Assembly (NCBI GenBank): GCA_050246755.1
Contig: JBFWVL010000001.1
Location: 1,280,001 to 1,344,000, forward strand
Direction of reading: 5' to 3'
DNA length: 64,000 bases
Source: Bacteriovoracia bacterium
Lineage (GTDB): Bacteria; Bdellovibrionota; UBA1018; CAIPTA01
A program made the position numbers and the translations under genes. Shown one piece after another: positions 38,520 to 54,528 of the stretch. A model generated the notes under the pieces. The model was not told the origin of the DNA. It did not search any database and saw nothing but the letters and a program-made list of their open reading frames with translations. Each line of letters begins with the position of its first letter. Position 1 is the first letter of the stretch.

Positions 38520-38671
38520 AAAATCCCCCTGCGAATGAATGCTTCTGGGTTCTTTCGATATAACTCGGATCGAGCGGCGTTTATTTTTTCTTGTACGCGA
38601 TCCGCTTCTTCAGAAGACCACCATAGCTTTCGGATTGCAGCCTTGAGAATTACGACAATCCTGCGCCTCAT
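38516..38671 (-). CDS. Small basic protein (51 aa)
   Basis: Not in track. ATGA overlaps on both sides; MRRRIVVILKAAIRKLWWSSEEADRVQEKINAARSELYRKNPEAFIRRGIL. Confidence 0.55.
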   Translation of the reverse strand: MRRRIVVILKAAIRKLWWSSEEADRVQEKINAARSELYRKNPEAFIRRGIL

Positions 38672-38898
38672 GCGACACCGCCCACCGATTCCTCGGTTTC
38701 ATCTTTTAGTTTTGCGATTTTCTCGCGGGATTTCTGGGCGGCGACCTTTTCGGCCCACGCCGGAATGGGGAGATCATCGGATGATCGCGGTCGATCCATA
38801 AGATCGGGGCTGTAGTTGCAGCTCACACAAAATGCGTGAGTTTTCAGAACTTCGTAGCCGCGTTCATTGCAGCGCGGGCACGTTCGTAGGTAGCTCAT
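38668..38898 (-). CDS. Small Zn-ribbon protein, first gene of leftward operon
   Basis: CPRC...CVSC; AAGGAG RBS. Confidence 0.75.
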   Translation of the reverse strand: MSYLRTCPRCNERGYEVLKTHAFCVSCNYSPDLMDRPRSSDDLPIPAWAEKVAAQKSREKIAKLKDETEESVGGVA

Positions 38899-39049
38899 AG
38901 CTTTTCTCCTTTGCTGGTGAGGCGGGCGGTTCTTCGCCCTCTCACCAAATTAAATTGCAAGGAGTGCCAGCTATTGCGTGATTGTGAGCCAACGCCCGAA
39001 GACCAAAGAGGAATTAGGGAAAACAGGCGGATTTTGCAGGATCGAAACA

Positions 39050-39265
39050 TTCAAAAATTTTGGTTGGATAAGCGCGAGATGCCCTTTTTGGGGGGGGCTC
39101 GCGTATTCAAGAAATTTGTCGGCCTTCAAAGATTTTGAACGTGTAGTTTATTCAGAGATATTCAATTTTTTTGAATACTCGAAATCAAACAAAAACAGTC
39201 TATTCTTCAATGAGTTACCTGCTAAAACTGGGGCCATCGCACCCTTAGTATTCAAAAAATTTGAA
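39050..39265. promoter_or_regulatory. Five palindromic TTCAA-N5-TTG(AA) boxes, candidate upstream activator sequences
   Basis: Copies at 39050-64, 39106-20, 39125-39, 39161-75, 39251-65; the last three are perfect TTCAA-N5-TTGAA. Confidence 0.7.
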
Positions 39266-39370
39266 GAACTAATTACATATTTGTTGTATATCAACCTCCC
39301 GAAGAGGGCCTATGGGCGCTGTTCTCGCGGTTTTTGAGGAGCTAACGGTTAAAGAGTAAACTTCTAGTTT

Positions 39371-39386
39371 TGGCATCGGTCTTGCT
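39371..39386 (+). promoter_or_regulatory. Sigma54 (-24/-12) promoter of the ycaO operon
   Basis: TGGCATCGGTCTTGCT with GG-N10-GC spacing, ~30 nt before ATG 39415. Confidence 0.8.
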
Positions 39387-39414
39387 CTCTTCGTGTTTAT
39401 CAGGGGGCCGATTT

Positions 39415-40386
39415 ATGATGGGCGATCTTGCTCAATACAATCAGAGAGTGAAAACGGGTTTTCAAAACCCACGGCTCTCACTCATTCCGAAAATCTCCAG
39501 TGAAGCGGAAATCAAACGGCCAGAGGGCTATGCACTTCCTGGGTTCGTGGCGCTCTCTGTAACTGCCGAAGCTGAGGGCTTAACGGCTACGGGCTACGGC
39601 GAAGGCCCGCGTGACCTTGCCCGCGGAAAGGCGATTTCCGAAGCATTCGAGCGATTGGCCCTCTTCAAATTCTGCGCGGACAGTAAAATCAGGGAAACAA
39701 GTAATGGCTGGGCCGCGCATCGTTCGGCTGACCTTGCGATCCGTGCGGCTACACTTGAATTGATTGAGCGTGATGTTGCTCTCAACTCATGGGAAGACGG
39801 CGGGCCTTTCTATGTAGTGCCCGAATCGCTTTGGCCGATGCCCTTATCTATATGGAAGGCAGAGCCACGCCCGCGCCTAGAATTTTTCGACCTTCGTATT
39901 CTTCTGAGTCAAGGTAACAACGGTGCGTGTATTTCTGCGCTCCTTTTTAACGAGAAGGAAAATTTCGTTGCGGGGCATGCCTCCGCGTTCAGGCTGGAAG
40001 ACGCGATTCTCTCCGCCGCAAATGAGTGCTTCAGGGCGGCACACTCCGCGATCCAATTTGAATTTCTCGCTGAGGTTACGGCTCTTCACGCTGGCGGGCC
40101 TGGAACTTGCGCCTCGCCAGGGGCTCACTCCCTGGCCTACGCCTACAAAGAGACGATGCCTGAAGTGGTGAGGATCGTGAGTGCCACGGAGAACGAAGTG
40201 CGCTCCCATTGGGAGCGACATCAAATCGTGTTGAACGACGTGAACCTCAGCGAATTCGATACGAAAACTTTTGAAGTTGACGACCGTATCGTGGCGCGAG
40301 TCAAAAGCCCCAGGCATCGGCAAATTTTTTGGGGCCGAACGAATGATTTGTCTAAACGAAACAAACACCCGCACTTTGTGGGTTAA
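39415..40386 (+). CDS. Compact stand-alone YcaO-family protein
   Basis: GYGEG...KAISEAFER; TSNGWAAH...LELIERD; GHAS...SAANE; C-terminal NKHPHFVG. Start moved to ATG 39415 because the TTG at 39370 overlaps the promoter. Confidence 0.85.
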   Translation: MMGDLAQYNQRVKTGFQNPRLSLIPKISSEAEIKRPEGYALPGFVALSVTAEAEGLTATGYGEGPRDLARGKAISEAFERLALFKFCADSKIRETSNGWAAHRSADLAIRAATLELIERDVALNSWEDGGPFYVVPESLWPMPLSIWKAEPRPRLEFFDLRILLSQGNNGACISALLFNEKENFVAGHASAFRLEDAILSAANECFRAAHSAIQFEFLAEVTALHAGGPGTCASPGAHSLAYAYKETMPEVVRIVSATENEVRSHWERHQIVLNDVNLSEFDTKTFEVDDRIVARVKSPRHRQIFWGRTNDLSKRNKHPHFVG

Positions 40387-40396
40387 GGAGGTAAGT

Positions 40397-40684
40397 ATGC
40401 GTAAAAATGCAATCAAAGGGATCTTGTTCTCAATCGCTAGTGCGACAGGGTTTTCCGCGCTTGCGGGAGAACTCCCACAGGGCTTGCACTTAGTCGAGGA
40501 GCTTCCCATTGAACAGCGGGTGATCGTGCATCAGCAGGTATTGAAATTTTTGAATGAGCATCCCGAAAATGCAGCCGATGCCAAGGTTATCGCGGTGGAT
40601 GAAAAGGGGACTGTATATGTCTTGGATGATAAGATGGAAAAAATGGCTCGTGTTGGTCAGCCTAGCTGCGTTGGTGGGCTTTAA
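40397..40684 (+). CDS. 95-aa secreted protein, candidate YcaO substrate/signal precursor
   Basis: Perfect AAGGAGGT RBS; signal peptide MRKNAIKGILFSIASATGFSALA; C-terminus KMARVGQPSCVGGL. Confidence 0.75.
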   Translation: MRKNAIKGILFSIASATGFSALAGELPQGLHLVEELPIEQRVIVHQQVLKFLNEHPENAADAKVIAVDEKGTVYVLDDKMEKMARVGQPSCVGGL

Positions 40685-42113
40685 TTCGCCAATGGCGATT
40701 GCTGGTTCGGAGAAGTCGGTGAATACGAAAAGCGTAAGAACGTATATGAATTTCGCCGGAGAAATTGATCCTGCCCATATTTTAACTATGGCTGATCTTG
40801 AACTCTCCGTTGCCCTGGCTACTCCGCTCGTCGTGTTCAATAACGAGCGCCAGGTGGTTTCGGGCTTGGCGGAAACATGGGCGATTCTTCCACCCGACCG
40901 TGTATCCTTCACCCTTCGCAAGAACCTCCGGTGGTCTGACGGCTCTTCTGTTACGGCTGCGGATTACAAAACTGCGCTGGAACGGGCGAAGCGCCTCTAC
41001 GCAAGTGATCTCAAGGCCCTATTTGAATCCGTCACCCGGATCGAGGCCCCCGACGACCGCACTCTTATTTTTATAACGAAGGGTGCAGTCTCGGAGAGCG
41101 GATTGCTGCTCAAGCTCACCGAACCCATGTATGGGCTCGTCGCCCTGAAGGGCGACGCTCTCGATCTTTCAAAGACTGTCGGCCCATTTTTCCTTAAAGA
41201 GAAGCGCGGCGATGTTTTGACCTTGGAGGCGAATAAAAATTGGTACGCCTACTCCAAGGATATGCCCTTGCTCGTCGAAATCAAACGCCCCAAAGATGGC
41301 TTTGATTTGATGGCAACTTTTGAGAAGGACGACTGGCCGAACCTGACCTCCGGCGGCTCGCTCATGCCGAAGGAAACCTTCGACCACTTGAGGAAAAACG
41401 GCTTCAAAACTTGGCAACGCAGTCTCGACAAGGTTTATAGCCTTTATCCCTCAAAGCGGTTTCTGAAAGCTGGAGGCGCGAACTTTATAAAAATCCTGGC
41501 AAAGAATGTGAATAACGCTTCATTGCTTAAGGGGCTCACTGGCTATGCCGACGCGGAACAATTTTTTCCGCGCGGCTATGAGCTGTACTCCGTTCGGCAA
41601 CCGAAGCTCCAAGCTCTCGACAAGTGGAGCGGCAAGAATGCCATAGTGGTTCTGTTGCTGGATACACCTGTTCTCTCTGGCATGCGTGAAGCCCTGGGGA
41701 AGACAATCTCGAATCTGTCAGGACATCCGGCCAAGATCGAAGTTATCCCCACCGCGAAATTGAGTGAACGTATGAAGCGCGGCGATTTCGACATTCTCGG
41801 CGTACAGGTTGCCGTCGCCGATCCGAATTTTGAAGGTGCGATGTCATTTTTTATCGAAAAAGATCCGCCGTTCATTCCGTCAGGAGAGGGCGCGGAGGAT
41901 TTTTCAGCCCAACTTCGCCAAGCACGCGGCCTACCTTCGTCGGCGGAGCGTTCCGCCCGCATGAGGGAGATTATCGTTCAAGCGCAGGAAGCGGGCCACG
42001 TCTTGCCTCTCTTCCATTTTTCTAGCATTGCCGTTGCAAAACCCGGCGTCGATCTATCGGAAATCCCGAACTCTGACGAAACGATCCTATTTTCCAAGGT
42101 GAGAATGCGATGA
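40617..42113 (+). CDS. Family 5 (oligopeptide-type) solute-binding protein, no permease adjacent
   Basis: IDPA, GLAETW, FTLRKNLRWSDGSSVTAADY, VGPFFL motifs; signal peptide WKKWLVLVSLAALVGFNSPMAIA; AGGGGA RBS before ATG 40617 (alternative ATG 40626). Confidence 0.85.
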   Translation: MSWMIRWKKWLVLVSLAALVGFNSPMAIAGSEKSVNTKSVRTYMNFAGEIDPAHILTMADLELSVALATPLVVFNNERQVVSGLAETWAILPPDRVSFTLRKNLRWSDGSSVTAADYKTALERAKRLYASDLKALFESVTRIEAPDDRTLIFITKGAVSESGLLLKLTEPMYGLVALKGDALDLSKTVGPFFLKEKRGDVLTLEANKNWYAYSKDMPLLVEIKRPKDGFDLMATFEKDDWPNLTSGGSLMPKETFDHLRKNGFKTWQRSLDKVYSLYPSKRFLKAGGANFIKILAKNVNNASLLKGLTGYADAEQFFPRGYELYSVRQPKLQALDKWSGKNAIVVLLLDTPVLSGMREALGKTISNLSGHPAKIEVIPTAKLSERMKRGDFDILGVQVAVADPNFEGAMSFFIEKDPPFIPSGEGAEDFSAQLRQARGLPSSAERSARMREIIVQAQEAGHVLPLFHFSSIAVAKPGVDLSEIPNSDETILFSKVRMR

Positions 42114-43474
42114 AATCCGAATCCTTGGAGCAAAATGTAAAACGCCAAGCCCTCGCCTGGACGAGTGCAGGCATCGTTTTCACCCTTTGCCTCACAGGAT
42201 CGCTTTCGCTTTTCCTTATGTTTAAGGATACCGAGCGCCAAGTCGAAACGCTCTCGACCTCGGCCATCACATCGGAGCGCACCGACATTCTTTCCGGCGA
42301 TATTCGTTCGATAGAACTGCGACTTAGAAAAAACTTTGGCATCGCGCCCGATGAAAGGCTACTTTTCCTCGACTCAAAACGTGCGCCCTGGGTTGGGGAT
42401 CTAAAACAGGAGAAGTTATCGCCTTGTGCGAGCCAAATTCCGTGCAGGCAGTGGTTTAATCAGCGGATCGTTCTCGAAAAGCCGATCTACTTTGACGACG
42501 AGGGAAAGCATCTCTGGGGTTACCTGCACATTGAAAAAGAGGCTAAGGCGAACTGGTCGCTGATTCTTGGCGTTGCAATCTCCATCGTGCTGGGAATGCT
42601 TTTTCAGGGAATCGGCGCTTATTACAAAACCCTAAAGTCCATTCGAGCGGTGAGCGCGGTACTCGCCGCGTGGGCGAAGAAAATTTCTGAAAACCCCAAA
42701 GACCAAAGCGCCTACACCCAAGTGCCATTCACGGAGATTGCGCCTGTTGGAAACGCGCTCCACGGCATGAAAGATTATATCGACGCGCTCGAAAGCAACG
42801 CCCGCGAACAAGGTGCCTTGGTCACGCTTCGCGGGATCGGCCACGACATTCTGAATCCCGTCGCCCGCATGAAGCGTATTCTTGGTCTTATCGAAATCGA
42901 AAAGCAATCCAATCCTGAAAACATCGCAAGCCTTCGCGCCAATCTCAAGCGCCTATCGAGTTATGCCGAGCAATTGAAGCTCATCTACAAGCGACAGATC
43001 GGCGAAGCAGACGACACCGCTCCCACCGTGGATGTTGCGAAGGAAGTGCGCGAGTTAGCCTCGGAGCTGTTGACCGATCCCGAAGCCATTGAAAAGGGCC
43101 TCAAGCTCCAAGTCGATGCGCAAACGCCCTGTGTGAGCCGGATTCCCGCTCCCGCGCTGAATCGGATTGTCGAAAATCTTTGCAGCAATGGCATCTACGC
43201 TAGCCCCGAAGGGGCCACGCTGTCATTGAAAGTAGAATCCAACGGCGACCGCGTTTCAATTCTCGTGCGTGACGAGGGCTCTGGCATTCCCGATGTGCTG
43301 CAAGCGAAAATTTTTGAGCCCGACTTTACCACTAAAGGCAATAAGGGCACGGGCCTTGGTCTTTTCGTGGTGAAGCAAATCTGCGAGCAATATGGCGGAC
43401 GAATCGCATTTTCGTCTAGCAAGAGCGGAACCGCATTCACTCTGGACTTTCCACGCGTGGAGGTGAGCCTATGA
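42110..43474 (+). CDS. Membrane sensor histidine kinase
   Basis: Two TMs around a periplasmic domain; H-box IGHDILNP, N-box ENLCSNG, DEGSGIP, FEPDFTTK, GTGLGL. Confidence 0.93.
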   Translation: MKSESLEQNVKRQALAWTSAGIVFTLCLTGSLSLFLMFKDTERQVETLSTSAITSERTDILSGDIRSIELRLRKNFGIAPDERLLFLDSKRAPWVGDLKQEKLSPCASQIPCRQWFNQRIVLEKPIYFDDEGKHLWGYLHIEKEAKANWSLILGVAISIVLGMLFQGIGAYYKTLKSIRAVSAVLAAWAKKISENPKDQSAYTQVPFTEIAPVGNALHGMKDYIDALESNAREQGALVTLRGIGHDILNPVARMKRILGLIEIEKQSNPENIASLRANLKRLSSYAEQLKLIYKRQIGEADDTAPTVDVAKEVRELASELLTDPEAIEKGLKLQVDAQTPCVSRIPAPALNRIVENLCSNGIYASPEGATLSLKVESNGDRVSILVRDEGSGIPDVLQAKIFEPDFTTKGNKGTGLGLFVVKQICEQYGGRIAFSSSKSGTAFTLDFPRVEVSL

Positions 43475-44841
43475 GCTACCGCATTCTCCTTGTGGACGAC
43501 GATAGAGAAAATCTGAACGTGAACAAGGCGATCCTCTCGGCCTCTGGCTACCAAGTTGCAACCGTGAAGTCGGGCCAAGAGGCCATCGACACAATCAAAT
43601 CAGCGAGGAAAGACTTTGCCCTGGTGCTAATGGACTATCACATGCCCGGTATGTCGGGGGCCGTCGCGGTAACGGAGATTAAAAAGATCAAGCCGCACCA
43701 GCAGATTTTGGCCTACTCCCTCGATGACAACCGCGATGTGATGCGCGAGACATTCAGGGCAGGCGTGGTCGATTTCCTCGACAAAAATTCCGAGAACGAG
43801 GTGCTGCTTTCAACTGTCGCCGCGTATTGCGAAAAGTACGAACAGGTTTTCCGCCCAATCGAAATCGACGATATTACCTCCGGCGAAAAAGAAAAATTCA
43901 TTCAAAGCGTAGGCATGATTGGATGCTCGGAGAAACTCTATGGATTGGCTCGTCAGATCGAGAAGGTCGCGCCGTCAAAGGCGACAACACTCATTCTCGG
44001 CGAGAGCGGAACGGGAAAGGAACTTGTGGCCCGCGCCCTTCATAAGCGCAGTGACCGCGCCGGCGGCCCGTTTATCGCCATCAACATTGCGGCGGAACCC
44101 GCATCGCTTCTCGACTCCGCATTATTCGGCCATCGCAAGGGATCATTCACAGGGGCAACGAACGATCAGCAAGGGAAATTCCAGCTCGCCAATAAGGGCA
44201 CGATTTTCTTAGATGAGATCGGCGACATGAGCCTTGACCTTCAAGTGAAGCTCCTCCGCGTTTTGCAGGAGCGCGAGATAACTCCGGTCGGAGCGGCGCG
44301 GCCCATTCCCGTTGATGTGCGTATTGTCGCGGCCACGCACCGCGATTTGTCGAAGATGGTTGTCGAAGGAAAATTCCGCGAAGACCTCTACTACCGTCTG
44401 AGCGCGGTGATCCTCGAAACCTCGCCGCTTCGGAATCGTCCCGAAGACTTGGAGCCGCTGGTAGTTCACTTTACACGGGAAATTTGTAAAGAAAACGGCT
44501 TCAGCCGTACATTTCACCGCCGCTGCCTTGAAGTGATGCGTGACTACTACTGGAAAGGAAACGTGCGCGAACTTCGCTCCGTAATCGAGCGCCACCTGAT
44601 CGCAAGCGACAGCGACTTGATCCGCGTCGAAGATTTAGATGCCCGCCTCTACCAAAAAAGAGAAACTGACGAACCAAAAACGCTGAAAGAAATCGACAAC
44701 TACCTTGAAGGGATCAAGAAGCAGATGGTGTTGGACGCAGTGAAAAGCACTCGCACCAAAGCGGAAGCCGCCCGGAAGCTCGACATTCCCCCGAACGGAC
44801 TTCACTATTTCGTGGTGAAGTACGGCCTCGATACGAAGTAG
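43471..44841 (+). CDS. Sigma54-dependent response regulator (NtrC-type enhancer-binding protein)
   Basis: REC (LVDDD, MDYHMPG), GESGTGKE, GSFTGA, FLDEIG, FREDLYYRL, WKGNVREL, C-terminal Fis-like HTH. Confidence 0.95.
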   Translation: MSYRILLVDDDRENLNVNKAILSASGYQVATVKSGQEAIDTIKSARKDFALVLMDYHMPGMSGAVAVTEIKKIKPHQQILAYSLDDNRDVMRETFRAGVVDFLDKNSENEVLLSTVAAYCEKYEQVFRPIEIDDITSGEKEKFIQSVGMIGCSEKLYGLARQIEKVAPSKATTLILGESGTGKELVARALHKRSDRAGGPFIAINIAAEPASLLDSALFGHRKGSFTGATNDQQGKFQLANKGTIFLDEIGDMSLDLQVKLLRVLQEREITPVGAARPIPVDVRIVAATHRDLSKMVVEGKFREDLYYRLSAVILETSPLRNRPEDLEPLVVHFTREICKENGFSRTFHRRCLEVMRDYYWKGNVRELRSVIERHLIASDSDLIRVEDLDARLYQKRETDEPKTLKEIDNYLEGIKKQMVLDAVKSTRTKAEAARKLDIPPNGLHYFVVKYGLDTK

Positions 44842-44973: not shown

Positions 44974-45204
44974 ATGGAGATGCGAATGCAGGCGATTGAG
45001 CCCTGGTACTCAGTTGAGGAAATTGCTCGTCACTTAGGCGTTTCAAAAGAAACGATCTATCGCTGGATTGAGCGCCGAAACATACCAGCTCATCGCATGG
45101 GGAAACTCTGGAAATTCAAACCTAGCGAAGTGGACGCATGGGTACAGAATGGTGGCGCTGCCGATGATCGCACGCACCGCAATCCACCGGAAAGCAGCGT
45201 GTGA
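44974..45204 (+). CDS. Excisionase-family HTH regulator heading the defence operon
   Basis: WYSVEEIARHLGVSKETIYRWI...IPAHRMGKLWKFKPSEVDAWV. Confidence 0.9.
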   Translation: MEMRMQAIEPWYSVEEIARHLGVSKETIYRWIERRNIPAHRMGKLWKFKPSEVDAWVQNGGAADDRTHRNPPESSV

Positions 45205-45208
45205 CCTG

Positions 45209-48200
45209 ATGGTAAAACTCGAAGAACTAAAACAATCACTCTATGTTCGCGGCTTAGAAGGCAACGAAGTCGTCCAGATTAAAAGTATCGAGAAGGTTAG
45301 CGAAGACGCAGTTACCGTTCTATATAAAAATGCTAAGGGGCAATTCCGCGAGCAGATGGTTCACAGGGCCGATGAAGCCCGCATAGAGCTAGTGGAGAAC
45401 AGTTCTCGCCCTTGGAGCTTTCAAGCGGATGGTGCGGAGTTTCGCCTTGGCCTCGAAGCTCAACGCATTCGACTCGCGCATCTTTTTGATCCGATGATGG
45501 CGGTTCACAGCTCCAATGTAGAACCGCTTCCTCATCAAATAACCGCCGTCTATGAGGCCATGCTGCCCAGGCAGCCGCTTCGCTTTGTACTTGCTGACGA
45601 CCCGGGCGCTGGCAAAACAATCATGGCCGGGCTTTTTATTAAAGAACTTATCATGCGTGCTGATGCTAAACGCATCTTGATCGTGACCCCTGGTTCGTTG
45701 AGTGAGCAATGGCAGGAGGAGCTTTATGAAAAGTTCGGCCTTCGTTTCGATTTATTCAGCAGAGAAAAAATGGAGCAATCCGTTCGTGGAAATTATTTTG
45801 AAGAACAAGACTACTTGATCTGCCGCCTCGACCAACTTTCGCGGAACGAGGAATTTCTATCAAAACTCCATGCGACGGAGTGGGATTTAGTCATTGTCGA
45901 TGAAGCTCACAAAATGTCCGCCAGTTTTACAGGCGGCGAGGTTAAGCGCACCGACCGATATGCTCTGGGCGAACAATTGGGAAAAATTACGCGCCACTTA
46001 CTGCTGATGACTGCAACCCCCCACAACGGTAAAGAAGAAGATTTTCAACTATTTCTTTCGCTGCTCGACAGTGACCGCTTCTATGGAAAATTCCGTGATG
46101 GAGTTCACAAGGTAGATGTGTCGGACATCATGCGGAGAATGGTCAAAGAAGAACTGCGTCGTTTTGACGGAACAAAACTCTTCCCACCACGATTTGCCTA
46201 CACCGTAAACTACCCACTTTCCGTGGGCGAGCAAAACCTGTACGACGCAGTGACAACTTACGTTCGAGAGGAAATGGATCGCGCCGATAGGTTATCTGCC
46301 GTAGATAAGCGCCGAGGCGGAACTGTTGGTTTCGCTCTTACAGCCCTTCAGCGCCGACTAGCTTCAAGCCCCGCCGCCATTCACGAATCACTTAAGCGTC
46401 GCTTGAATCGTCTTCAAGCGCGCCTTGAGGAAATGAAGAAAGTCAGCTCCGGCCAACTGCCAAAGAACACCTTGGACAAATATAACCAAGCGGTGCCCTC
46501 AAACTTCGACGATGCCGACGATGAAATGAGTTCGGAGGAGTACGAAGAGTTCACCGATGAAGTGATTGATCAAGCAACCGCCGCACAAACGGTCGAGGAA
46601 CTTCAAAAAGAAATCATCATTTTAAAGGATCTTGAACAAGAAGCTCGCAAGGTTCGACTTTCCGGTGAAGACAAAAAGTGGTCTGAACTTTCGACCCTGC
46701 TCCAGGGCAATCCCCACATGAAGGATAAGAAAGGCAACTTCCGTAAGCTGCTTATCTTTACCGAGAGTCGCGACACCCTTGATTACCTTGTGGAAAAGAT
46801 TGTAGGCGTCTTCGGAAGCCCCGATAAGATCGTGACGATCCACGGGGGAACGAATCGTGACCGAAGAAAAGAAGCCCAAGCCCTTTTCCGAAACGATCCG
46901 AATGTTCATGTAATGATCGCAACCGATGCCGCTGGCGAAGGCGTGAACTTACAAAACGCAAACCTGATGGTGAACTACGACCTGCCCTGGAATCCAAATC
47001 GGATTGAGCAACGGTTTGGACGTATTCACAGGATCGGCCAGACTGAGGTCTGCCATCTCTGGAATATGGTTGCGAAAGGAACCCGCGAAGGCGATGTGTT
47101 TCATACTCTTTGTGAAAAATTGGAAGTTCAGAGCAAGGCTCTCGGCGGCAGAGTGTTTGACATACTTGGCGAAGCCTTCGAGGACATATCACTCAAAGAT
47201 TTGCTGATTCGAGCAATCCGTACTGCCGACAGTGATGCTGTTCGCCGAGAAATTCGGAAGGTTGTGTCTGATAGTCTCGAAACCGAACGAATCCAAGAAC
47301 TCTACAAGCGCAATGCGCTAGTTGAGCAGCACATGAATCTCGACCAACTCTACAAAGTGAAAGAGGACATGGATCGCGCGGAGGCTCGCAAACTCCAGCC
47401 CTATTTCATTCGGTCATTCTTCGATGAGGCTTTCAAATCCCTCGGCGGCGATATTCGTGCGCGAGAAACTGGTCGATGGGAAATCGCTCACGTTCCGCCA
47501 GTCGTGATTGAGCGAGCCAAGCAACTTCTCGGCTCTAGGCATCCAGTGACCAGAACCTACCAGAGGGTTTGTTTTGAAAAGAATGTCGTGCCAATTGAAG
47601 ATCGACCCAAAGTTGATCTCATTCACCCCGGGCATCCTCTGATGGCTGCTGTCACGGACATTATACTTGAGAAAAATCGTGGAAAGCTCCGGGAGGGGGC
47701 GATCCTTGTCGATCCCGCAGATGAATCGAATGAGCCTCGGGTAGTGTTCATGCTTGAGCATTCGATTAAGGAAAGTTCTGGGGAACAAAAGGTAGTTTCT
47801 CAATCTTTGCAGTTTGTCTCCATCGAAAAAAATCTTCAGCCTACCAATGCGGGCTGGGCTCCGCATATTGATCTTCGCGCCATCAAAGCCGAAGAACGCG
47901 AACTCGTCGCCGATGTGATTGGCGCTCCTTGGCTGAAGACTGAACTTGAAACTAAAGCATTGGCTTATGCTTCGCAAGAAATGGCTCCCCTTCATTTCAA
48001 GGAAACCAAAGAGCGTCGAGAAACCTTTGCCGACAAGGTGAATCAGGCAGTTCACGAGCGCCTAACGAAGGAAATTTCCTATTGGGAAGATCGATACGTC
48101 AAACTTAAGGAGCAACAAAGTGAAGGCAAGCAGCCCCGAATGCAGCCAGAAAATGCTCGCCGCAAGGTAGAAGAGCTTAACGCCCGCTTGGATCAAAGGA

Positions 48201-48739
48201 AAAAAGAAATCGCAGCGATGAGAAATGTAATTTCATCGACGCCTAATGTAATCGGTGGAGCGCTAATTATCCCGGCTGGCCTCCTCGCTCAGAAGTCTGG
48301 CAATACGACGTTCACAATAGATTCAGAGGCTCGTAAGCGTATCGAGAAGATCGCTATGAACGCTGTCATGGATGTTGAGCGTGGTTTTGGCCATCATGTT
48401 TTCGATGTTTCCGCTGACAAATGCGGCTGGGACGTAACTGCGCGAATCCCCCCGAAGGACGAACTTCTTTTTGAAGATCGCCATATAGAGGTGAAGGGCC
48501 GCGCAAAAGGTCAGGAAACCATCACCGTCACAGCCAACGAGATCATGTACGCACTAAACCAGCGGGAGAAATTCATCTTGGCGATTGTGATTATAGATGG
48601 GGATAAATTCGAGGGGCCATTCTACGTCAAGAATCCTTTCAAGAGCCCGCCAGATTTTCAGAGTGAAAGCAGAAATGTTCCCCTGAAGGAATTGTTGCAG
48701 ATGTCCGTTAAGCCCGAGCAAACGATTAGGAGGGGCTAG
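45209..48739 (+). CDS. SNF2-family helicase with C-terminal DUF3883-like nuclease
   Basis: LADDPGAGKT, VDEAHK, LMTATPH, ATDAAGEGVNLQ, QRFGRIHRIGQ; C-terminal GWDV...IEVKGR; start at ATG 45209. Confidence 0.92.
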   Translation: MVKLEELKQSLYVRGLEGNEVVQIKSIEKVSEDAVTVLYKNAKGQFREQMVHRADEARIELVENSSRPWSFQADGAEFRLGLEAQRIRLAHLFDPMMAVHSSNVEPLPHQITAVYEAMLPRQPLRFVLADDPGAGKTIMAGLFIKELIMRADAKRILIVTPGSLSEQWQEELYEKFGLRFDLFSREKMEQSVRGNYFEEQDYLICRLDQLSRNEEFLSKLHATEWDLVIVDEAHKMSASFTGGEVKRTDRYALGEQLGKITRHLLLMTATPHNGKEEDFQLFLSLLDSDRFYGKFRDGVHKVDVSDIMRRMVKEELRRFDGTKLFPPRFAYTVNYPLSVGEQNLYDAVTTYVREEMDRADRLSAVDKRRGGTVGFALTALQRRLASSPAAIHESLKRRLNRLQARLEEMKKVSSGQLPKNTLDKYNQAVPSNFDDADDEMSSEEYEEFTDEVIDQATAAQTVEELQKEIIILKDLEQEARKVRLSGEDKKWSELSTLLQGNPHMKDKKGNFRKLLIFTESRDTLDYLVEKIVGVFGSPDKIVTIHGGTNRDRRKEAQALFRNDPNVHVMIATDAAGEGVNLQNANLMVNYDLPWNPNRIEQRFGRIHRIGQTEVCHLWNMVAKGTREGDVFHTLCEKLEVQSKALGGRVFDILGEAFEDISLKDLLIRAIRTADSDAVRREIRKVVSDSLETERIQELYKRNALVEQHMNLDQLYKVKEDMDRAEARKLQPYFIRSFFDEAFKSLGGDIRARETGRWEIAHVPPVVIERAKQLLGSRHPVTRTYQRVCFEKNVVPIEDRPKVDLIHPGHPLMAAVTDIILEKNRGKLREGAILVDPADESNEPRVVFMLEHSIKESSGEQKVVSQSLQFVSIEKNLQPTNAGWAPHIDLRAIKAEERELVADVIGAPWLKTELETKALAYASQEMAPLHFKETKERRETFADKVNQAVHERLTKEISYWEDRYVKLKEQQSEGKQPRMQPENARRKVEELNARLDQRKKEIAAMRNVISSTPNVIGGALIIPAGLLAQKSGNTTFTIDSEARKRIEKIAMNAVMDVERGFGHHVFDVSADKCGWDVTARIPPKDELLFEDRHIEVKGRAKGQETITVTANEIMYALNQREKFILAIVIIDGDKFEGPFYVKNPFKSPPDFQSESRNVPLKELLQMSVKPEQTIRRG

Positions 48740-51669
48740 TGGAACAGCTTCGCATTCCTAAAAAACTGATTGAGGTCGCACTACCACTTGATGCCATTAA
48801 TGATGCCGCTCAACACGAAAAATCCGTAAGGCACGGACATCCGAGTTCGCTACATCTTTGGTGGGCTCGGCGTCCTATGGTCGTTGCCAGGGCAGTTATC
48901 TTTGCACAAATGGTAAATGACCCAGGCTATGAAAGGAATTTGGGGCGCGGAATAAATAGGGAGAAAGCACAAATTGAGCGAGAGCGGCTGTTCAATATCA
49001 TACGTCGCCTCGTTGATTGGGAATCGTCTAATGACCCTGCTTTATTAAGAGAAGCAAATGAAGAAATACGACGTAGTTGGATGGAAACATGTGAGTTGAA
49101 CAAAGCTCACCCCAAAGCAGATACACTTTTTAACCCCAAGATTCTTCCAGGTTTTCACGACCCTTTTGCTGGCGGAGGTGCGCTGCCAATTGAGGCCCAG
49201 CGTTTGGGATTGAATTCGTTAGCATCCGACCTGAACCCAGTAGCGGTCTTAATTAACAAAGGCATGATCGAAATTCCTCAGCGTTTTCTAGGGAGGGCGG
49301 CGGCAAATCCCGACGACTCTGCAAATAAACTTCAAAATGCGTGGCCTGGACTTACGGGTCTTGCAGCCGACTTAAAGTACTACGGCAATCTCTTAAAACA
49401 GGAAGCTGAAAGCCGGATCGGGAAGTATTTTCCCGATGTTGAAATTCCCGTTGATGTAGTGGAGGGCGGGAAGAAAAAAAAATATCCCAGGGGCACAAAG
49501 TTTAAAGCCATAGCTTGGTTATGGACAAGAACAGTTAAAAGTCCAAGTCCGGCTTTTTCTAATGTCGATGTCCCAATTGCTTCATCATTCGTGTTGTCTG
49601 CAAAGTCCGGCAAAGAGGCTTATCTTGTGCCGAATATTGAGGGCGACTCAATTTCATTCTCGGTGAAACACGGGGTCGGCGCAGATTTTGAGAAAGCGAG
49701 ACTTGGAACAACGGCAGGCAAACGGAATGGATTCATTTGTGTAGTTTCTGGAGCCCCAATTGATTACGAGTATGTAAGATCCGAGGCGATGGCGGGAAGA
49801 CTGGGAGAAAGATTGATGGCTGTGGTTGTAGAGGGAGAAAGGGGCCGCATATATCTCCCTGCAACTAAAGAAATGGAAGATATTGCAAAATCAGCGACAC
49901 CGACATGGCAACCCGAAGAAGCGTTTTTTCAACAGGCGTTGGGATTCCGCGTGGGAAATTACGGAATGTCTAAATGGAGCGATCTTTTCACCAGAAGACA
50001 AACTTTAGCTCTCTCCACGCTTTGTGAGTTAATCCCCGAAATCAATTTGAAGGTTCAAAGAGATGCAATTTCTGCAGGCCATATGGCAGATGAAAAATCT
50101 CTTGAAGATGGCGGGTTCGGCTCAAGAGCCTATGGCGAAGGAATATCAACGTATTTGGCTTTCTTAATAGATCAGCTCGCAAATCATCTTTCAGAGCTAT
50201 GTGCATGGCACGTCAATAACGAGCAGCTCAAGAATACTTTTGCAAGACAGACGCTTTCAATGACTTGGGACTTTGCCGAAACTAATCCTTTTTCTGAATC
50301 AACGGGGAGTCTTTATAGCCTACTTGATCGGCAAGTTAAGGGAGTACTTTCGTTGTGTCAGAATGGCATCCCTGGTTGCTCAATTCAGGCAGATGCAGCA
50401 ACTCAGAATCTATCTGCAAATAAAGTTATTTCTACTGACCCTCCTTATTACGATAACATCGGCTACGCTGACCTATCTGATTTCTTTTATGTTTGGTTAC
50501 GCAAGTCTCTACAGCAGATTTATCCTAAGCTGCTTGCGCCGCCAGTCGTTCCAAAAATAGAAGAATTGGTCGCCACCCCAGACCGTCATGGAGGAAAGCG
50601 AACCGCAGAAACATTTTTTCTTAACGGAATGACCTCTGCGATGAAGCGGCTCGCAGATCAAAGCCACCCCGCGTTTCCAGTAACTATTTACTATGCCTTC
50701 AAGCAATCTGAGACTACTTCCCAAGAGGGAACCCATAGCACCGGATGGGATACATTCCTCTCCGCGGTTATTAAGGCGGGATTCGCAATCAGCGGTACAT
50801 GGCCAATTAGAACCGAACAAACAGCCGCGCTTAAAACAACGCGAAATGCACTTGCATCTAGTATTATTCTCACCTGTATAAAACGCGCTCCGGGAGCCCC
50901 GGTGGTTTCACGACGCGAATTTATTCGCGAATTAAATAGTATACTTCCAATTGCCTTGAGTGAAATGACGGCGGGTTCAAATACTCCACCCGTTGCGCCC
51001 GTTGATCTAAGTCAGGCAATCATTGGCCCAGGTATGGCTGTGTTTTCTAAATACTCAGCAGTACTGGAGGCGGACGGAAGTCCAATGGCTGTCAAAACGG
51101 CTCTTCAAATCATAAATAGATTTCTCGCAGAAGAAGACTTCGACCACGACACCCAGTTTTGTCTCCAGTGGTTTGAGGAGCATGGTTGGGCGACTGGAAA
51201 ATTCGGTGAGGCTGATGTCCTGGCGCGCGCAAAAGGTACGTCTGTCGACGGACTGCGTGATGCGGGAATCGTCGAAAGCGCGCACGGCTCTTTGAAATTA
51301 ATCAAGCCGAATGATTTAGACTCTGGCTGGATGCCAGAAAACGACACGCGAGTTTCTGTTTGGGAGTTGTTGCATCATATGATTGCACGCTTCGGCACAG
51401 AAGGGGAATCAGGTGCAGGAGAGCTACTTTCGAGAGCTGGACAAATCAGTGAAACGGTTCGGACATTAGCGTATCGGCTTTTTACTACCTGTGAGCGCAA
51501 GGGTTGGGCACAAGACGCAGGAAGTTACGATAGCTTAGTTAGAGCGTGGGACTCAATTGAATCCTCTGCTGGGGCGATTGGTTATAAAGGAACACAAATT
51601 TCACTTTTCAACTCCGATTCAGTTGCGAACAGCACGATCGATCAAAAGAAGTCGAGGAAGAAACGATGA
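48739..51669 (+). CDS. DUF1156-type adenine DNA methyltransferase
   Basis: [26 protein letters not shown] (SAM), TDPPYYD (catalytic). Confidence 0.92.
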
Positions 51670-54512
51670 CACTAAAACCGTGGCGAGAGCTTATCACTCC
51701 GCATAAAGATGTTCTGGATGGCACATTTAAGCAAAGCGAATTCGCAGCCGACCTTACTCAAGTTCAAAATGGCACGGCTTCGGGTGAATATAAGGATGCA
51801 GAAAAATTCTTTCAGCGCACCTTTATCACTGAAGGGATGCGACTCCTCCTTGACTCTGTTGCCAGGCGCATTTCCGGCAAAGGTGGTGACCCGGTTATTC
51901 AACTTCAAACATCCTTCGGGGGTGGCAAGACCCATACTCTCTTGGCCGTCTTTCATTTGACCCGGCGAGAAGTCAGTCCCGAAAAGATGAGCGGGATACC
52001 GCCCATTCTTGATGCCGCCGGTATTACCGACCTTCCCAAAGCCAGGATCGCAGTCATTGACGGCAATAATATGTCGCCAAGCAAACCACGAAAACGTGGC
52101 TCCGTTTTGGTGAACACCATTTGGGGCGAAATCGCATGGCAACTGCTAGGAGAGCCCGGATACAAGTTCGTTGCCGAAGCAGATAGAGAAGGCACATCGC
52201 CAGGGAAAGAGTCGCTAGTCGAGCTTCTCAAAAGCGCTGCTCCTTGCGTTGTGTTAATCGACGAGTTGGTTGCGTTCATCCGTCAACTTGAATCTGGGAA
52301 GTCTTATGTGGGTGGCACATTTGAGAGTAATTTGAGTTTCATTCAGGCTCTTACCGAGGCCATGAAATCTGTACCAAATGCACTTCTGCTGGCATCGTTA
52401 CCTGAGTCTGAAATTGAAGTCGCAGGGCCAATGGGCAAGCTCGCCCTTGATTCCCTTGAAAAATATTTTGCCCGCGTTGAATCTGTATGGAAGCCTGTGG
52501 CAACTCAAGAGGCATTTGAGATCGTAAAGCGTCGCCTATTTGAAGGAACTGGAAATCGAGTTGAAATCGAAAAAGTTTGTAAGACGTTTTTTAATTTCTA
52601 TATTGAGAATAACACCAAATTTCCGTCAGAGACGCAAACTAGTCAGTATTTTGATCGGCTGATCCAGTCTTACCCCATTCACCCAGAAGTTTTTGATCGC
52701 CTCTATACGGATTGGTCAACGCTTGAGAAGTTTCAGAGGACTCGTGGAGTCCTTCAATACTTGGCGATTATCATTCATCGACTTTGGAACTCTGGCGACA
52801 GCGATCCTATGGTGATGCCTGGTTCTCTTCCTCTCGAAGATGTGAATGTTCGCACGAAGAGCATCCACTATCTACCTCAAGGCTGGGAACCCGTGATCGA
52901 AACAGAAATTGATGGCCCTCGCTCAGTGCCAGCGGAAATTGACGGCAAAGAAGCACGCATGGGAGCGATTCGGGCCGCTCGCAGACTCGGTCGAACGCTA
53001 TTTCTTGGAAGCGCACCCTCGGCCAATACTCAAGGGGCAAGAGGATTGGCTTTGGATCACATCATTCTTGGAGCGGCCATTCCTGGCCAGGTGATTGGCG
53101 TCTATGAAGACGCGCTGAAACGTCTCCGCGATCAGTTACAATACTTGTTCGGCGATAGCAACCGCTTCTGGTTCGATACACGGGCGAACTTACGCAAAGA
53201 AATGGAATCCCGAAAGCTCCGCCTTGAAGGACGAGAACATATACTTCCCTGCATTCGTGAGTTTGTTACCAGCGATCTACGCGGAAATTCGGTTTTCGCT
53301 GGCGTTCATGTGTTCACGGATTCAGCGGACATCCCTGATGAAATTGGGCCGGGCCCCCGACTCGTGGTTTTGGCCCCAGAGCATTCAAGTGCGTACTCTC
53401 GGGCAAATGCCACTATCTCCCAGGACGCTGCCAGCAAGATTCTCGAAAAACGCGGTGATCAGCCTAGACAACGCCGTAATCGCATCGTCTTTCTCGCTCC
53501 CGATTATGACTCGCTCTCTCGCCTGAAAGAAAACGCGAAAACCTACTTGGCTTGGGAATCCATCGTTAAGGACATCAAGGACGAAAAACTAAACCTCGAC
53601 ATGCATAACTCTCGACAGGCTAAACAAGCCTTCGAGCAATCTGAGAAGGTCTTGCGCCAGAGTATTCGAGATTCGTTCAAGTGGATTTTGAATCCATACG
53701 AAGAACTCGCGGCAGGTCGATTCACCTTGAAGTGGGAGGCCACACAAGTCTCTGCGGGCGGATCAAACTTTATCGGTGCGATTGAAAACAAAATGCGTGA
53801 GGAGGAGTGGATCATCACAGAATGGTCGCCGATCCACCTCACCAACATTCTGAAACAGTGGTACTTTAAAGAAGCGCAGGCTGACGTAGTTACCAAGAAA
53901 ATCCTTAACGACTTCGCCAGCTATCTCTATCTCCCGAGGCTCACGTCTGACGTCGTTCTCAAAAATGCTATAGCCGAAGGCGTGATGGCGGATGATTTCT
54001 TTGGATTCGCTCAGGGAAAATCAGGTGAACGCTATTTGGGACTTAAAATTGGGGCACCCGCTAACATCTTTATCGACGACACCACTCTTATCGTCGAAAA
54101 GGGTGTTGCGCTAAAACAGCGAGAGCAAGAGCGAGTGGAGGCTCCATTGTCCTCAGCCGCCTCTAGTTCAAATTTAACCACTCCTTCTGCAAGTGGCTTT
54201 ACCGGAGGCACGACGGAATCTCGGACTGTCGCAGCTCATGGCGCTGGTTCGGCAAACTGCTTCACAGCATCCAAAGAACTGAACGCGAGAACAGCCAAGC
54301 TCCACTTCAATGACGTAATCGAAAAAGTGCTTCGTCAGCTTACGGAGCGAGTATCCACTGCCGTTACTGTTTCCGTCAGCATTGAAGCCATAGATGAATA
54401 CGAATTTGGGCTAGACGTGCAGAAGGCTATCCTTTCCGCTTGCGAGGAGCTTCAGTTTAATCGAAGTGAGTTCTATAGAAATTCGGATATCAAAGGGAGT
54501 GACCGCCAATGA
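51666..54512 (+). CDS. DUF499-family AAA+ ATPase
   Basis: [48 protein letters not shown]. Confidence 0.92.
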
Positions 54513-54528
54513 TGGCACATCGCTTGCC
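54513..54528 (+). promoter_or_regulatory. Sigma54 (-24/-12) promoter
   Basis: TGGCACATCGCTTGCC with GG-N10-GC spacing in the 40-bp gap before ATG 54553. Confidence 0.7.

Follow-up and report, generated by a model that had tools for sequence, protein, structure and literature searches.

A conserved module of YcaO-like enzyme, small secreted protein, binding protein, kinase and sigma54 activator beside conjugation genes of Bdellovibrionota, and its possible part in modified-peptide signaling

Organization of the five-gene module

The subject of this report is a five-gene module in a 64 kb window (the whole stretch of DNA analyzed, G000:C1:1280001-1344000) of the genome of a Bacteriovoracia bacterium, which totals 3.5 Mb in 10 contigs and is 95.7% complete. 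The genes specify a compact YcaO-like enzyme, a small secreted protein, an orphan family-5 solute-binding protein (SBP), a sensor histidine kinase (HK) and an NtrC-type activator (Table 1). An earlier note, made from the sequence alone, had claimed five adjacent or overlapping genes behind a sigma54 promoter and divergent from a conjugation operon, and all of these are present, with the protein domains recognized by Pfam. The five coding sequences (CDS) run head to tail on the + strand from 39415 to 44841, where the note had placed them. The divergent operon, on the - strand, starts at 38898 with the gene for a Zn-ribbon protein and continues with those for TrbC/VirB2 pilin, a TraL/VirB3-like protein and TraC/VirB4 of a type IV secretion system (T4SS).

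Table 1. Features of the module and its surroundings, and the four modules of the genome (window positions unless a contig is given; TM, transmembrane; UAS, upstream activating sequence).
Feature	Position	Strand	Remarks
Compact stand-alone YcaO-like enzyme	39415..40386	+	323 aa; Pfam YcaO PF02624; without signal peptide or TM segment
Precursor-like secreted small protein, 95 aa	40397..40684	+	Signal-peptide-like N-terminus, conserved tail, dN/dS
Orphan family-5 SBP (peptide/nickel/opine type), own putative signal peptide	40617..42113	+	Pfam SBP_bac_5
Two-TM sensor HK	42110..43474	+	Pfam HATPase_c, hydropathy
NtrC-type response regulator / sigma54 activator	43471..44841	+	Response_reg + Sigma54_activat + HTH_8
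Sigma54-type -24/-12 promoter TGGCAT-N5-TTGCT, GG-N10-GC, TGGCATCGGTCTTGCT	39371..39386	+	29 nt before ycaO start codon
Five TTCAA-N5-TTG(AA) palindromes, between divergent operons	39050..39265 (39050, 39106, 39125, 39161, 39251)	.	Candidate UAS
TGGCAC-TC-CTTGCAA element, GG-N8-GC	38955..38969	-	Ideal -24 and -12 halves, before T4SS operon
76-aa Zn-ribbon-like protein (orf76), first gene of divergent T4SS operon	38668..38898	-	Diverges with module
Module 1	The window		YcaO, 95-aa protein, SBP, HK, activator
Module 2	C6 33.5-43.6 kb		Gene order of the window; YcaO 31-33% identical; tail ..EPSCWTAPF; own sigma54 site; divergent from T4SS
Module 3	C6 145.7-156 kb		Activator, 92-aa secreted protein (..YSVICY), SBP, 283-aa YcaO, HK; co-directional with T4SS operon
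Module 4 (L068)	C5:220042-231483		Activator, radical SAM enzyme, 112-aa secreted protein (..KIPSEW), SBP5, HK, then T4SS

The reading frame of ycaO opens at 39370 with a TTG codon, and because this codon falls within the promoter, the ATG at 39415 is the likely start. The gene for the small protein begins 10 nt past the ycaO stop codon and is preceded by AGGAGG. The likely start of the SBP gene (ATG at 40617, preceded by AAGGGGA) lies inside the small gene in another frame, and over this 68 nt overlap (40617-40684) the same DNA encodes both the small protein's tail and the SBP's signal peptide, an arrangement seen in the close family. At a paralogous locus on contig C6 the two genes only abut, so the overlap is not essential. 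The SBP and HK genes, and the HK and activator genes, overlap by 4 nt each.

The YcaO-like enzyme

The first gene product matches Pfam PF02624 with 39.9 bits (gathering cut-off 25.7; 4e-10), and the match covers profile positions 112-239 of 325 only. A collection of 5.8 billion proteins holds 97 homologues, nearly all of about 320 aa, and every one carries PF02624 except for a 189 aa fragment. The AF2 model scores highly (predicted local distance difference test, pLDDT, 89.3; predicted template-modeling score, pTM, 0.87), and the top Foldseek matches are YcaO proteins only (probability 1.0; query TM-score, TMq, 0.47-0.54). The partner-independent archaeal enzymes (6ci7/6peu) come first, then McbD (6gri_D), LynD (4v1v) and Ec-YcaO (4q84). 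A search of the ESM Atlas returned YcaO clusters only and nothing new.

Nine residues (E76, E79, R80, E115, E118, R119, E204, P319 and H320) are invariant across 22 homologues down to 29% identity, and the two helix motifs (ExxER/ELIERD-type) both align with those of M. jannaschii MJ1094. The invariant acidic residues are presumably the ATP/Mg2+ ligands. By Pfam score, predicted fold and acidic motifs the enzyme belongs to the YcaO superfamily, and it is predicted to be catalytic. The partner of TfuA-dependent thioamide-forming YcaO enzymes is missing, as TfuA (PF07812) has no match anywhere in the 95.7%-complete genome. According to two reports, YcaO enzymes can recognize folded protein substrates, or leaders, without the partner protein that carries a RiPP recognition element (RRE; RiPP, peptide made on ribosomes and modified after translation) (PMC13063428, PMC12455567).

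The small secreted protein and its conserved tail

The N-terminus of the 95 aa protein reads as a signal peptide (MRKNAIK, 16 uncharged residues, then ALA/GE), and its C-terminus is ..VGQPSCVGGL, in which Cys91 is the sole cysteine of the protein. Between the two, AF2 predicts a beta-alpha-beta-beta-beta domain (residues 30-87) with modest confidence (pLDDT about 76-80), and the tail, GQPSCVGGL, is disordered in the model. A dN/dS of 0.12-0.13 in comparison with two relatives (dS about 1.4) indicates a real coding gene. The gene follows ycaO in all 12 closely related loci, where the product ends in G-x-P-S-[S/C]-x(2-7), and a small ORF follows ycaO in 18 of 19 further loci, L033 being the exception.

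When a profile of the small protein was searched against 1.84 billion representative sequences, 6148 matched at an E-value of up to 0.001. The best 150 of these include 26 full-length proteins of 94-135 aa, which were kept, and 124 motif-level matches, which were set aside. The tails of the 26 are PSC in 19, PSS in three, PTC in two, and PST and HST in one each, so that P-[ST]-[CST] is kept in 25 of them, and the conservation of the C-terminal PSC tail, about which the earlier note had asked, is borne out. The tail is the best-kept feature of an otherwise fast-evolving protein, and its third motif position varies only among Cys, Ser and Thr, the residues that YcaO cyclodehydratases cyclize. 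In two of the 26, the hairpin and tail form a duplicated cassette (hairpin plus L-G-x-P-S-C-I-x-E, twice). Among more distant modules, in which YcaO is 25-35% identical, the small gene shrinks to 48-72 aa, and these short forms start with a basic stretch that turns hydrophobic, followed by a short linker and an end rich in Gly and Ser (GASCG, GATCG, GATCEK, GGSCK, GASCR, GGTCDF). The single constant is a Ser or Thr followed by Cys, Ser or Thr a few residues before the C-terminus.

The 124 matches that were set aside are giant repeat proteins that align only with positions ~66-88, a VYVLD-type beta-hairpin. This V-Y-V-L-D hairpin corresponds to a repeat found 7-24 times in proteins of 578-4401 aa; the repeat looks like a propeller-type one, with no indication of a common function with the small protein.

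Binding protein, kinase and activator

The third gene product is matched by SBP_bac_5 (8e-18), and its profile, compared with the PDB, finds OppA (3e-18), AapF, NikA, MppA, AgaA, PrgZ (4faj, 2e-7) and MbnE (5icq, 2e-5). It is without any Cys. Among the window ORFs scanned with Pfam there is no permease or ATPase of the family-5 transporter type, Opp permeases included, and the claim that this SBP is an orphan stands. The kinase (HATPase_c, 3e-22) has the H-box GIGHDILNP and two hydrophobic segments, residues 20-38 and 151-169, that flank a loop of ~112 aa, which would be periplasmic. An orphan SBP gene coupled to the gene for a kinase with a periplasmic loop, and lacking a cognate permease, is the arrangement of binding-protein-dependent sensors.

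The activator is recognized by Sigma54_activat (5e-69), Response_reg (2e-21) and HTH_8 (0.0098). Its receiver Asp lies in VLMDYHMPG, its AAA+ domain carries a GSFTGA loop, and the HTH_8 domain is C-terminal. The genome also encodes RpoN (6.7e-64). A receiver, an AAA+ domain with a GAFTGA-type loop, a helix-turn-helix (HTH) domain, a -24/-12 promoter and rpoN together place the protein in the NtrC class.

A complex prediction for the mature SBP (residues 30-498) and the mature small protein (residues 24-95), each entered as an alignment, scored 0.29 and 0.00 against a mark of 0.32, values that weigh neither for nor against binding of one by the other.

Promoter and palindrome array

The sequence TGGCATCGGTCTTGCT is the only match to TGGCA-N6-TTGCW in the window, but shuffled windows contain at least one match in 24 of 100 cases, and the lone match is not significant by itself. 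Its significance comes from its conservation in related loci: every one of the 11 loci whose upstream region is intact has a promoter of the form TTGGC-N-TTGCT (GG-N10-GC), placed 30-45 nt ahead of the start codon and ~96-121 nt past the last palindrome. The palindrome array contains three perfect copies of TTCAA-N5-TTGAA, compared with 0.18 expected from shuffles, and these form the sole cluster among the nine perfect copies in the 3.5 Mb genome. All 10 intact intergenic regions hold 3-5 palindromes at near-identical spacing (~56/19/36/90), even where YcaO is 44-49% identical. The array is the candidate enhancer (UAS) for the sigma54 activator of the module.

In the distant modules, TTCAA-N5-TTGAA is absent from nine of 10 upstream regions, with one copy in L046, so that the enhancer assignment rests on the close family. 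Such an absence is expected if each activator has its own site. Sigma54-type sites precede ycaO in five of the 10 distant modules, and the strict pattern was not found in the other five. A simple sigma70 consensus scan of 38899-39414 gave no promoter-like site, though scans of this type are weak evidence.

On the side of the T4SS operon lies an element with the two halves of a -24/-12 promoter (TGGCAC-TC-CTTGCAA, Table 1), followed by a conserved hairpin (~38915-38947) and a ribosome-binding site ahead of the leader gene of the operon. Its core, T/C-TGGCA[CT]-NN-CTTGCAA, is invariant in all eight aligned loci, ~95 nt from the first palindrome, and is also present in L044. We know of no use of a GG-N8-GC spacing by sigma54, and the element could be a non-canonical promoter or the site of another protein.

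Conservation, spread and divergence of the module

A scan of one genome per species, with the gene order determined by tblastn of the window proteins, gave 12 loci, all from metagenome-assembled genomes of the Bdellovibrionota type. The order YcaO, small protein, SBP, HK, activator is found in 12 of the 12; ten show all five genes, and the contigs of L006 and L007 end after three and four of them. The module diverges from orf76-orf115-VirB2-B3-B4 in all nine loci that are long enough to show it, even with VirB4 at 32% identity, and the same divergent layout is seen where YcaO is 44-49% identical. The five-gene synteny beside VirB2/VirB4, which the earlier note had suggested as a check, is thus a property of the family. 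At L010 (563-2837), the regulatory region and the 5' third of ycaO have given way to three minus-strand ORFs (515, 118 and 113 aa), in a layout that we take to resemble an IS66-type element.

Nine intermediate loci, with YcaO 25-35% identical, all keep YcaO, the small gene, SBP and HK, and eight also keep the activator, the ninth being cut. T4SS genes adjoin five of the nine, and in L050 and L051 the module is co-directional with the T4SS operon and directly upstream of it. Eleven more distant loci have a rearranged core, SBP-YcaO-HK, with overlapping genes; tblastn recognized the SBP in eight of them and the HK in nine, and Pfam added the HK of L062 and the SBP of L063. In most, a small secreted ORF lies just upstream of the SBP gene, and some of these end in ..RTICL, ..GGTICF or ..SVICTG... 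Compact YcaO proteins of this family (E-value up to 1e-10) occur in 63 of 401 sampled genomes of the phylum and in 48 of 204 genera. The distribution is patchy: only two of the four other genomes of the same genus carry one, and some best matches lie in other families.

The window was also compared with two near-identical elements, L009 and L003. The proteins VirB4, VirB3, VirB2 and orf115, together with the Xis-like and helicase proteins, are 86-95% identical (dN 0.02-0.08), while orf76 and the five module proteins are 61-78% identical (dN 0.14-0.22, about threefold higher), and dS is similar, and near saturation, throughout the element. Judged by these rates, the module is the fast-evolving part of the element and is still under purifying selection. 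A block that diverges faster than its surroundings is the pattern seen at pherotype loci. The divergence fits a diversified specificity of signal and receptor; relaxed constraint would account for it too.

Four modules in one genome and a radical SAM form

The genome has four VirB4 (T4SS) loci, and each is accompanied by genes for a small secreted protein, an SBP5, an HK and a sigma54 activator (Table 1, modules 1-4). Three of the four modules include a YcaO, in two gene orders, of which that of module 3 has the rearranged SBP-YcaO-HK core known from the most distant loci, and the remaining one has a radical S-adenosylmethionine (SAM) enzyme instead. The latter matches PF04055 (2e-23), and its best NCBIfam matches are radical SAM/SPASM peptide maturases, all below cut-off. 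Such a form occurs in 19 of 401 phylum genomes, and in loci that span only 1.5 kb either side of the enzyme gene, a small secreted ORF follows in 14 of the 19 and an SBP in 12. An exchange of enzyme class with the small protein, SBP, HK and activator retained can hardly be accounted for other than by an enzyme that acts on the small protein and a product that is part of the sensing function.

A homologue of orf76 lies between module and T4SS genes at all three of the other T4SS loci. In the close relatives this protein is 60-65% identical, where VirB2/B3/B4 are 86-93% identical, and it may be a link between module and transfer.

In loci related to module 4, small proteins end in ..APSYK, ..SPSPWGGG and ..APSAW. 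These P-S-x-W/Y tails resemble the P-S-C-W of some YcaO modules, which hints at a common ancestry of the precursors. Some of the small ORFs that follow the radical SAM gene in L078, L079 and L080 begin with ..[KT]RRSILGIL.., a twin-arginine-like signal. Such a signal would allow export after folding or modification.

Proposed mechanism and alternative explanations

The module is almost certainly a functional unit. We propose that its genes would form a single sigma54-dependent, self-activating operon that makes and perceives a modified, exported peptide or small-protein signal. The cytoplasmic YcaO would recognize the small protein by its hairpin-plus-tail (the short forms by their leader) and, with ATP, would activate the backbone at P-[S/T]-[C/S/T], at the amide before the third motif residue. 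The likeliest product would be an azoline (thiazoline or oxazoline), with a thioamide or YcaO-driven cleavage at this position less likely. The modified product would be exported through its Sec-type signal peptide and, in the periplasm or after release, its tail would be bound by the orphan SBP, which would signal via the periplasmic loop of the two-TM kinase. Phosphorylated by the kinase, the activator would bind the TTCAA-N5-TTGAA array and fire its own -24/-12 promoter, a positive feedback, and it would probably also influence the divergent transfer operon. Support for such a signal comes from the short, peptide-like small genes, the duplicated tail cassettes and the parallel radical SAM module.

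The links of this chain differ in strength. Autoregulation through sigma54 is very likely and the small protein is probably the substrate of the YcaO, and the chance that the product is the ligand of the SBP falls a little short of even. Control of transfer by a census of cells or elements is a tentative suggestion to which we give less credence still, and control of the transfer operon is the weakest link. For the chain as a whole, in which we infer every biochemical step, the ligand and the output, we see the chances as evenly balanced. The module is real, conserved and undescribed, and the mechanism, if unproven, is plausible.

Several observations weigh against a self-made peptide signal that governs transfer. 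Family-5 proteins bind nickel, opines and muropeptides too. The YcaO scores only 25.4 bits against TIGR03604 (SagD-type cyclodehydratase), for which the cut-off is 219.25 (the YcaO of the third T4SS locus reaches 32.7 bits). No E1-like/RRE partner or FMN dehydrogenase was found in the five genes and their neighbors, nor a leader protease or dedicated exporter; the claimed lack of TfuA, E1-like partner, dehydrogenase, protease and exporter accordingly holds genome-wide for TfuA and, for the others and for an Opp-type permease, in the flanking ORFs scanned with Pfam, a subset of those in the window. A precursor with a Sec signal would need to be modified before export, which is unusual for a RiPP-like precursor, and the exported product of the 95 aa form would, by its predicted structure, be a folded protein of ~72 aa and not a short peptide. 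Two of the 18 small ORFs downstream of ycaO (L023 and L032) end in GTGG-type tails without Ser or Cys. The ycaO of L010 has been destroyed by the insertion described above, and the other four module genes are intact. The 11 distant YcaO-SBP-HK triads have no T4SS gene within ~9 kb, which argues that the module is not tied to conjugation and is older and wider than that link; the note's description of it as encoded by an integrative conjugative element thus stands for the window, where integrase and T4SS genes are present, but the module is not specific to such elements. Finally, the GG-N8-GC spacing of the T4SS-side element means that control of the transfer genes is not established. The interpretation that the note had offered is supported in part: each of its predictions that could be checked by computation held, namely co-conservation, the tail, and a promoter and array of the kind that autoregulation expects, and the modification, export, binding, density sensing and control of transfer that it envisaged would follow from these only as proposals.

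The roles of the genes could be divided differently. The SBP, kinase and activator might sense an outside cue, such as peptides of prey or recipients, muropeptides, nickel or an opine-like compound, with the YcaO and small protein as output of the regulon, for example a bacteriocin-like, exclusion, adhesion or pilus-associated factor and not the signal itself. We regard this as unlikely, though deserving of serious attention. The SBP profile matches OppA, MppA, NikA and AgaA about equally weakly, which leaves the ligand class open, members of the host phylum are predators that meet the cell-wall peptides of prey, the YcaO and small genes come first in the operon, as an output could, and the sensor genes of L010 persist without an intact ycaO. 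Against an outside cue, however, no gene order seen, the overlapping SBP-YcaO-HK arrangement among them, has SBP and HK without a small secreted protein and either a YcaO or a radical SAM enzyme, and linkage that survives such rearrangements is expected of a signal and its receptor rather than of one regulon member. The module also diverges as a block, faster than its surroundings.

It is a good deal less probable that the YcaO modifies another protein (a host protein, or the kinase, the activator or the not yet exported SBP of the module), in the manner of E. coli YcaO on ribosomal protein uL16. In that case the small protein would be an accessory to the sensor in the periplasm, and its Cys tail would be used for metal or redox sensing or for covalent attachment. 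Stand-alone YcaO enzymes that modify folded proteins do exist, as PMC13063428 describes, and the archaeal McrA-modifying enzymes are the best structural matches; in the distant triads ycaO lies between the SBP and kinase genes and overlaps both, and the 95 aa protein has a folded domain in its AF2 model. The SBP, however, contains no Cys, and only the small ORF with its Ser/Thr-Cys end tracks ycaO through all architectures examined. Moreover, the forms of 48-56 aa have no folded domain to serve as an accessory, and the duplicated tail cassettes resemble multi-core precursors. A YcaO-like protein that performs no peptide chemistry and acts as a scaffold or ATP-sensing subunit would be in keeping with its unusually small size (323 aa; 283 aa at the third locus), with its match to only the central part of the Pfam model and with the lack of partner proteins, but we consider it very improbable: 22 homologues, with identities down to 29%, share without exception the acidic helix-motif residues, E204 and the C-terminal P-H, the helix motifs can be aligned with their M. 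jannaschii counterparts, and the radical SAM enzyme that fills the YcaO position at the sister locus argues for catalysis.

Comparison with known systems

Among 8.4 million papers and preprints, those behind subscription excepted, we found none that links a YcaO to quorum sensing, a kinase or an SBP, and none that describes YcaO systems in Bdellovibrio; the note likewise knew of no described system with such an architecture. In agrBDCA of Staphylococcus and comQXPA of Bacillus, a precursor, a modifying enzyme, a membrane kinase and a response regulator form an autoregulated operon. These are the closest analogues; the module likewise has a putative precursor and its dedicated enzyme, a kinase and a regulator in one operon, with a conserved sigma54 promoter and palindrome array that would fit autoregulation, and it too diverges fast. 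They differ in that no component is homologous: Pfam and NCBIfam recognize YcaO, SBP_bac_5, a generic HATPase_c kinase and an NtrC-type activator, and no relatives of AgrB/AgrD/AgrC/AgrA or ComQ/ComX/ComP/ComA. Here the role of AgrB/ComQ would fall to a YcaO or radical SAM enzyme, the precursor has a Sec-type signal peptide, a periplasmic SBP5 precedes the kinase, and a sigma54 activator, a diderm host and a conjugative element are involved. By its gene content the module would at most work like the agr/comQXPA cassettes and is not a member of their family; the likeness is to the logic of an autoinducing modified-peptide cassette, which appears to have been built from entirely different parts in a diderm host.

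The YcaO enzymes of linear azol(in)e-containing peptides (LAP), thiazole/oxazole-modified microcins (TOMM) and cyanobactins (McbBCD, BalhCD, LynD/PatD) are alike in fold, in acidic motifs and in having an adjacent gene-encoded substrate, here a presumed one, with Cys, Ser or Thr at the conserved site. Cyanobactin precursors carry repeated cassettes, much like the duplicated cassettes in the small-protein family. Unlike those enzymes, the one described here is far below TIGR03604, has 323 aa, and lacks an E1-like/RRE partner, dehydrogenase, protease and ABC exporter; there is a single conserved site near the C-terminus of the substrate, and sensor genes stand in place of immunity and export genes. 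The archaeal YcaO that forms thioglycine in McrA (6ci7, 6peu), the best structural match, has no RRE partner and acts on folded substrates. The same is proposed for the present enzyme and is reported for E. coli YcaO on uL16 (PMC13063428). Both of these make thioamides in housekeeping proteins, whereas here TfuA is absent, a sulfur donor is not obvious, and the adjacent gene encodes the presumed substrate, a small secreted protein.

Conjugation pheromones of Firmicutes (cCF10/PrgZ/PrgX of pCF10; PhrI/RapI of ICEBs1) are peptide signals encoded by the element itself, and pCF10 also specifies its own OppA-family protein. This protein, PrgZ, is detectably related to the SBP (4faj, 2e-7). The pCF10 and ICEBs1 peptides, however, are unmodified, imported by Opp and sensed in the cytoplasm, and here there is no permease and the SBP gene is followed by those for a kinase and a sigma54 activator. 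LuxP/LuxQ, ChvE/VirA, TorT/TorS and AioX/AioS/AioR are binding-protein-dependent kinase systems, of which AioXSR has a sigma54 activator as its last member and ChvE/VirA governs a T4SS. They share with the module the pairing of an orphan binding protein in the periplasm with a neighboring kinase that has a periplasmic loop, but their ligands are small metabolites from outside, and no ligand-making enzyme and precursor are present in the operon. In methanobactin operons (MbnA, MbnE), a dedicated family-5 SBP binds a RiPP whose backbone carries heterocycles, and MbnE is a weak match to the SBP (5icq, 2e-5); MbnE serves metallophore uptake, and these operons differ in having no YcaO, kinase or sigma54 activator logic.

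Enzyme-matured peptide pheromones are a hallmark of Gram-positive bacteria (agr, com, plasmid pheromones), and diderms are thought to use small diffusible molecules. If the proposed mechanism is true, an enzyme, precursor, periplasmic receptor, kinase and sigma54 activator would fill this gap, and would offer the smallest known YcaO, together with a gene-encoded, easily testable substrate, for work on partner-independent recognition. It would also show how a conjugative element decides the timing of transfer, and account for the coexistence, free of cross-talk, of several related elements in a genome. A bolder extrapolation, which we are inclined to doubt, is that elements of Bdellovibrionota carry mutually orthogonal RiPP-type pheromone circuits, each with a partner-less YcaO or radical SAM enzyme, Sec export and an SBP5/HK/sigma54 readout, as a private channel by which an element counts its own kind and decides on transfer, with four such circuits in this genome. 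If so, this would be the first modified-peptide quorum sensing in diderm bacteria and a new minimal class of YcaO chemistry. The whole circuit occupies ~5.5 kb with a defined promoter and would be directly testable in a heterologous host.

The surrounding element and its cargo

The element that carries the module is a T4SS-type integrative conjugative element, with integrase, T4SS and DNA-processing genes. Besides the genes already described, Pfam recognizes TrbI/VirB10 (3e-18), an FtsK-like ATPase (FtsK_SpoIIIE, 1e-17) and a tyrosine integrase (Phage_integrase, 5e-20), and no relaxase family was recognized among the window ORFs scanned. A search for the borders (att) found none: there is no repeat of at least 14 nt with the tRNA-Ser/Arg region, and flank-to-flank matches of 13-14 nt are at chance level.

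Downstream of the module are an Xis-like HTH gene, a set of SNF2 helicase, DUF1156 and DUF499 genes, and more defence-like genes. The set forms a three-gene, defence-like cargo directly after the module (45068-54512), in which the SNF2-type helicase has a NOV_C nuclease-like end and 94.6% identity to its L009 counterpart. Immediately past the DUF499 gene, at 54513-54528, is another canonical -24/-12 motif, TGGCACATCGCTTGCC (GG-N10-GC); it has no TTCAA-N5-TTGAA palindrome nearby and precedes a 130 aa ORF and a run of GHKL/AAA defence-like genes.

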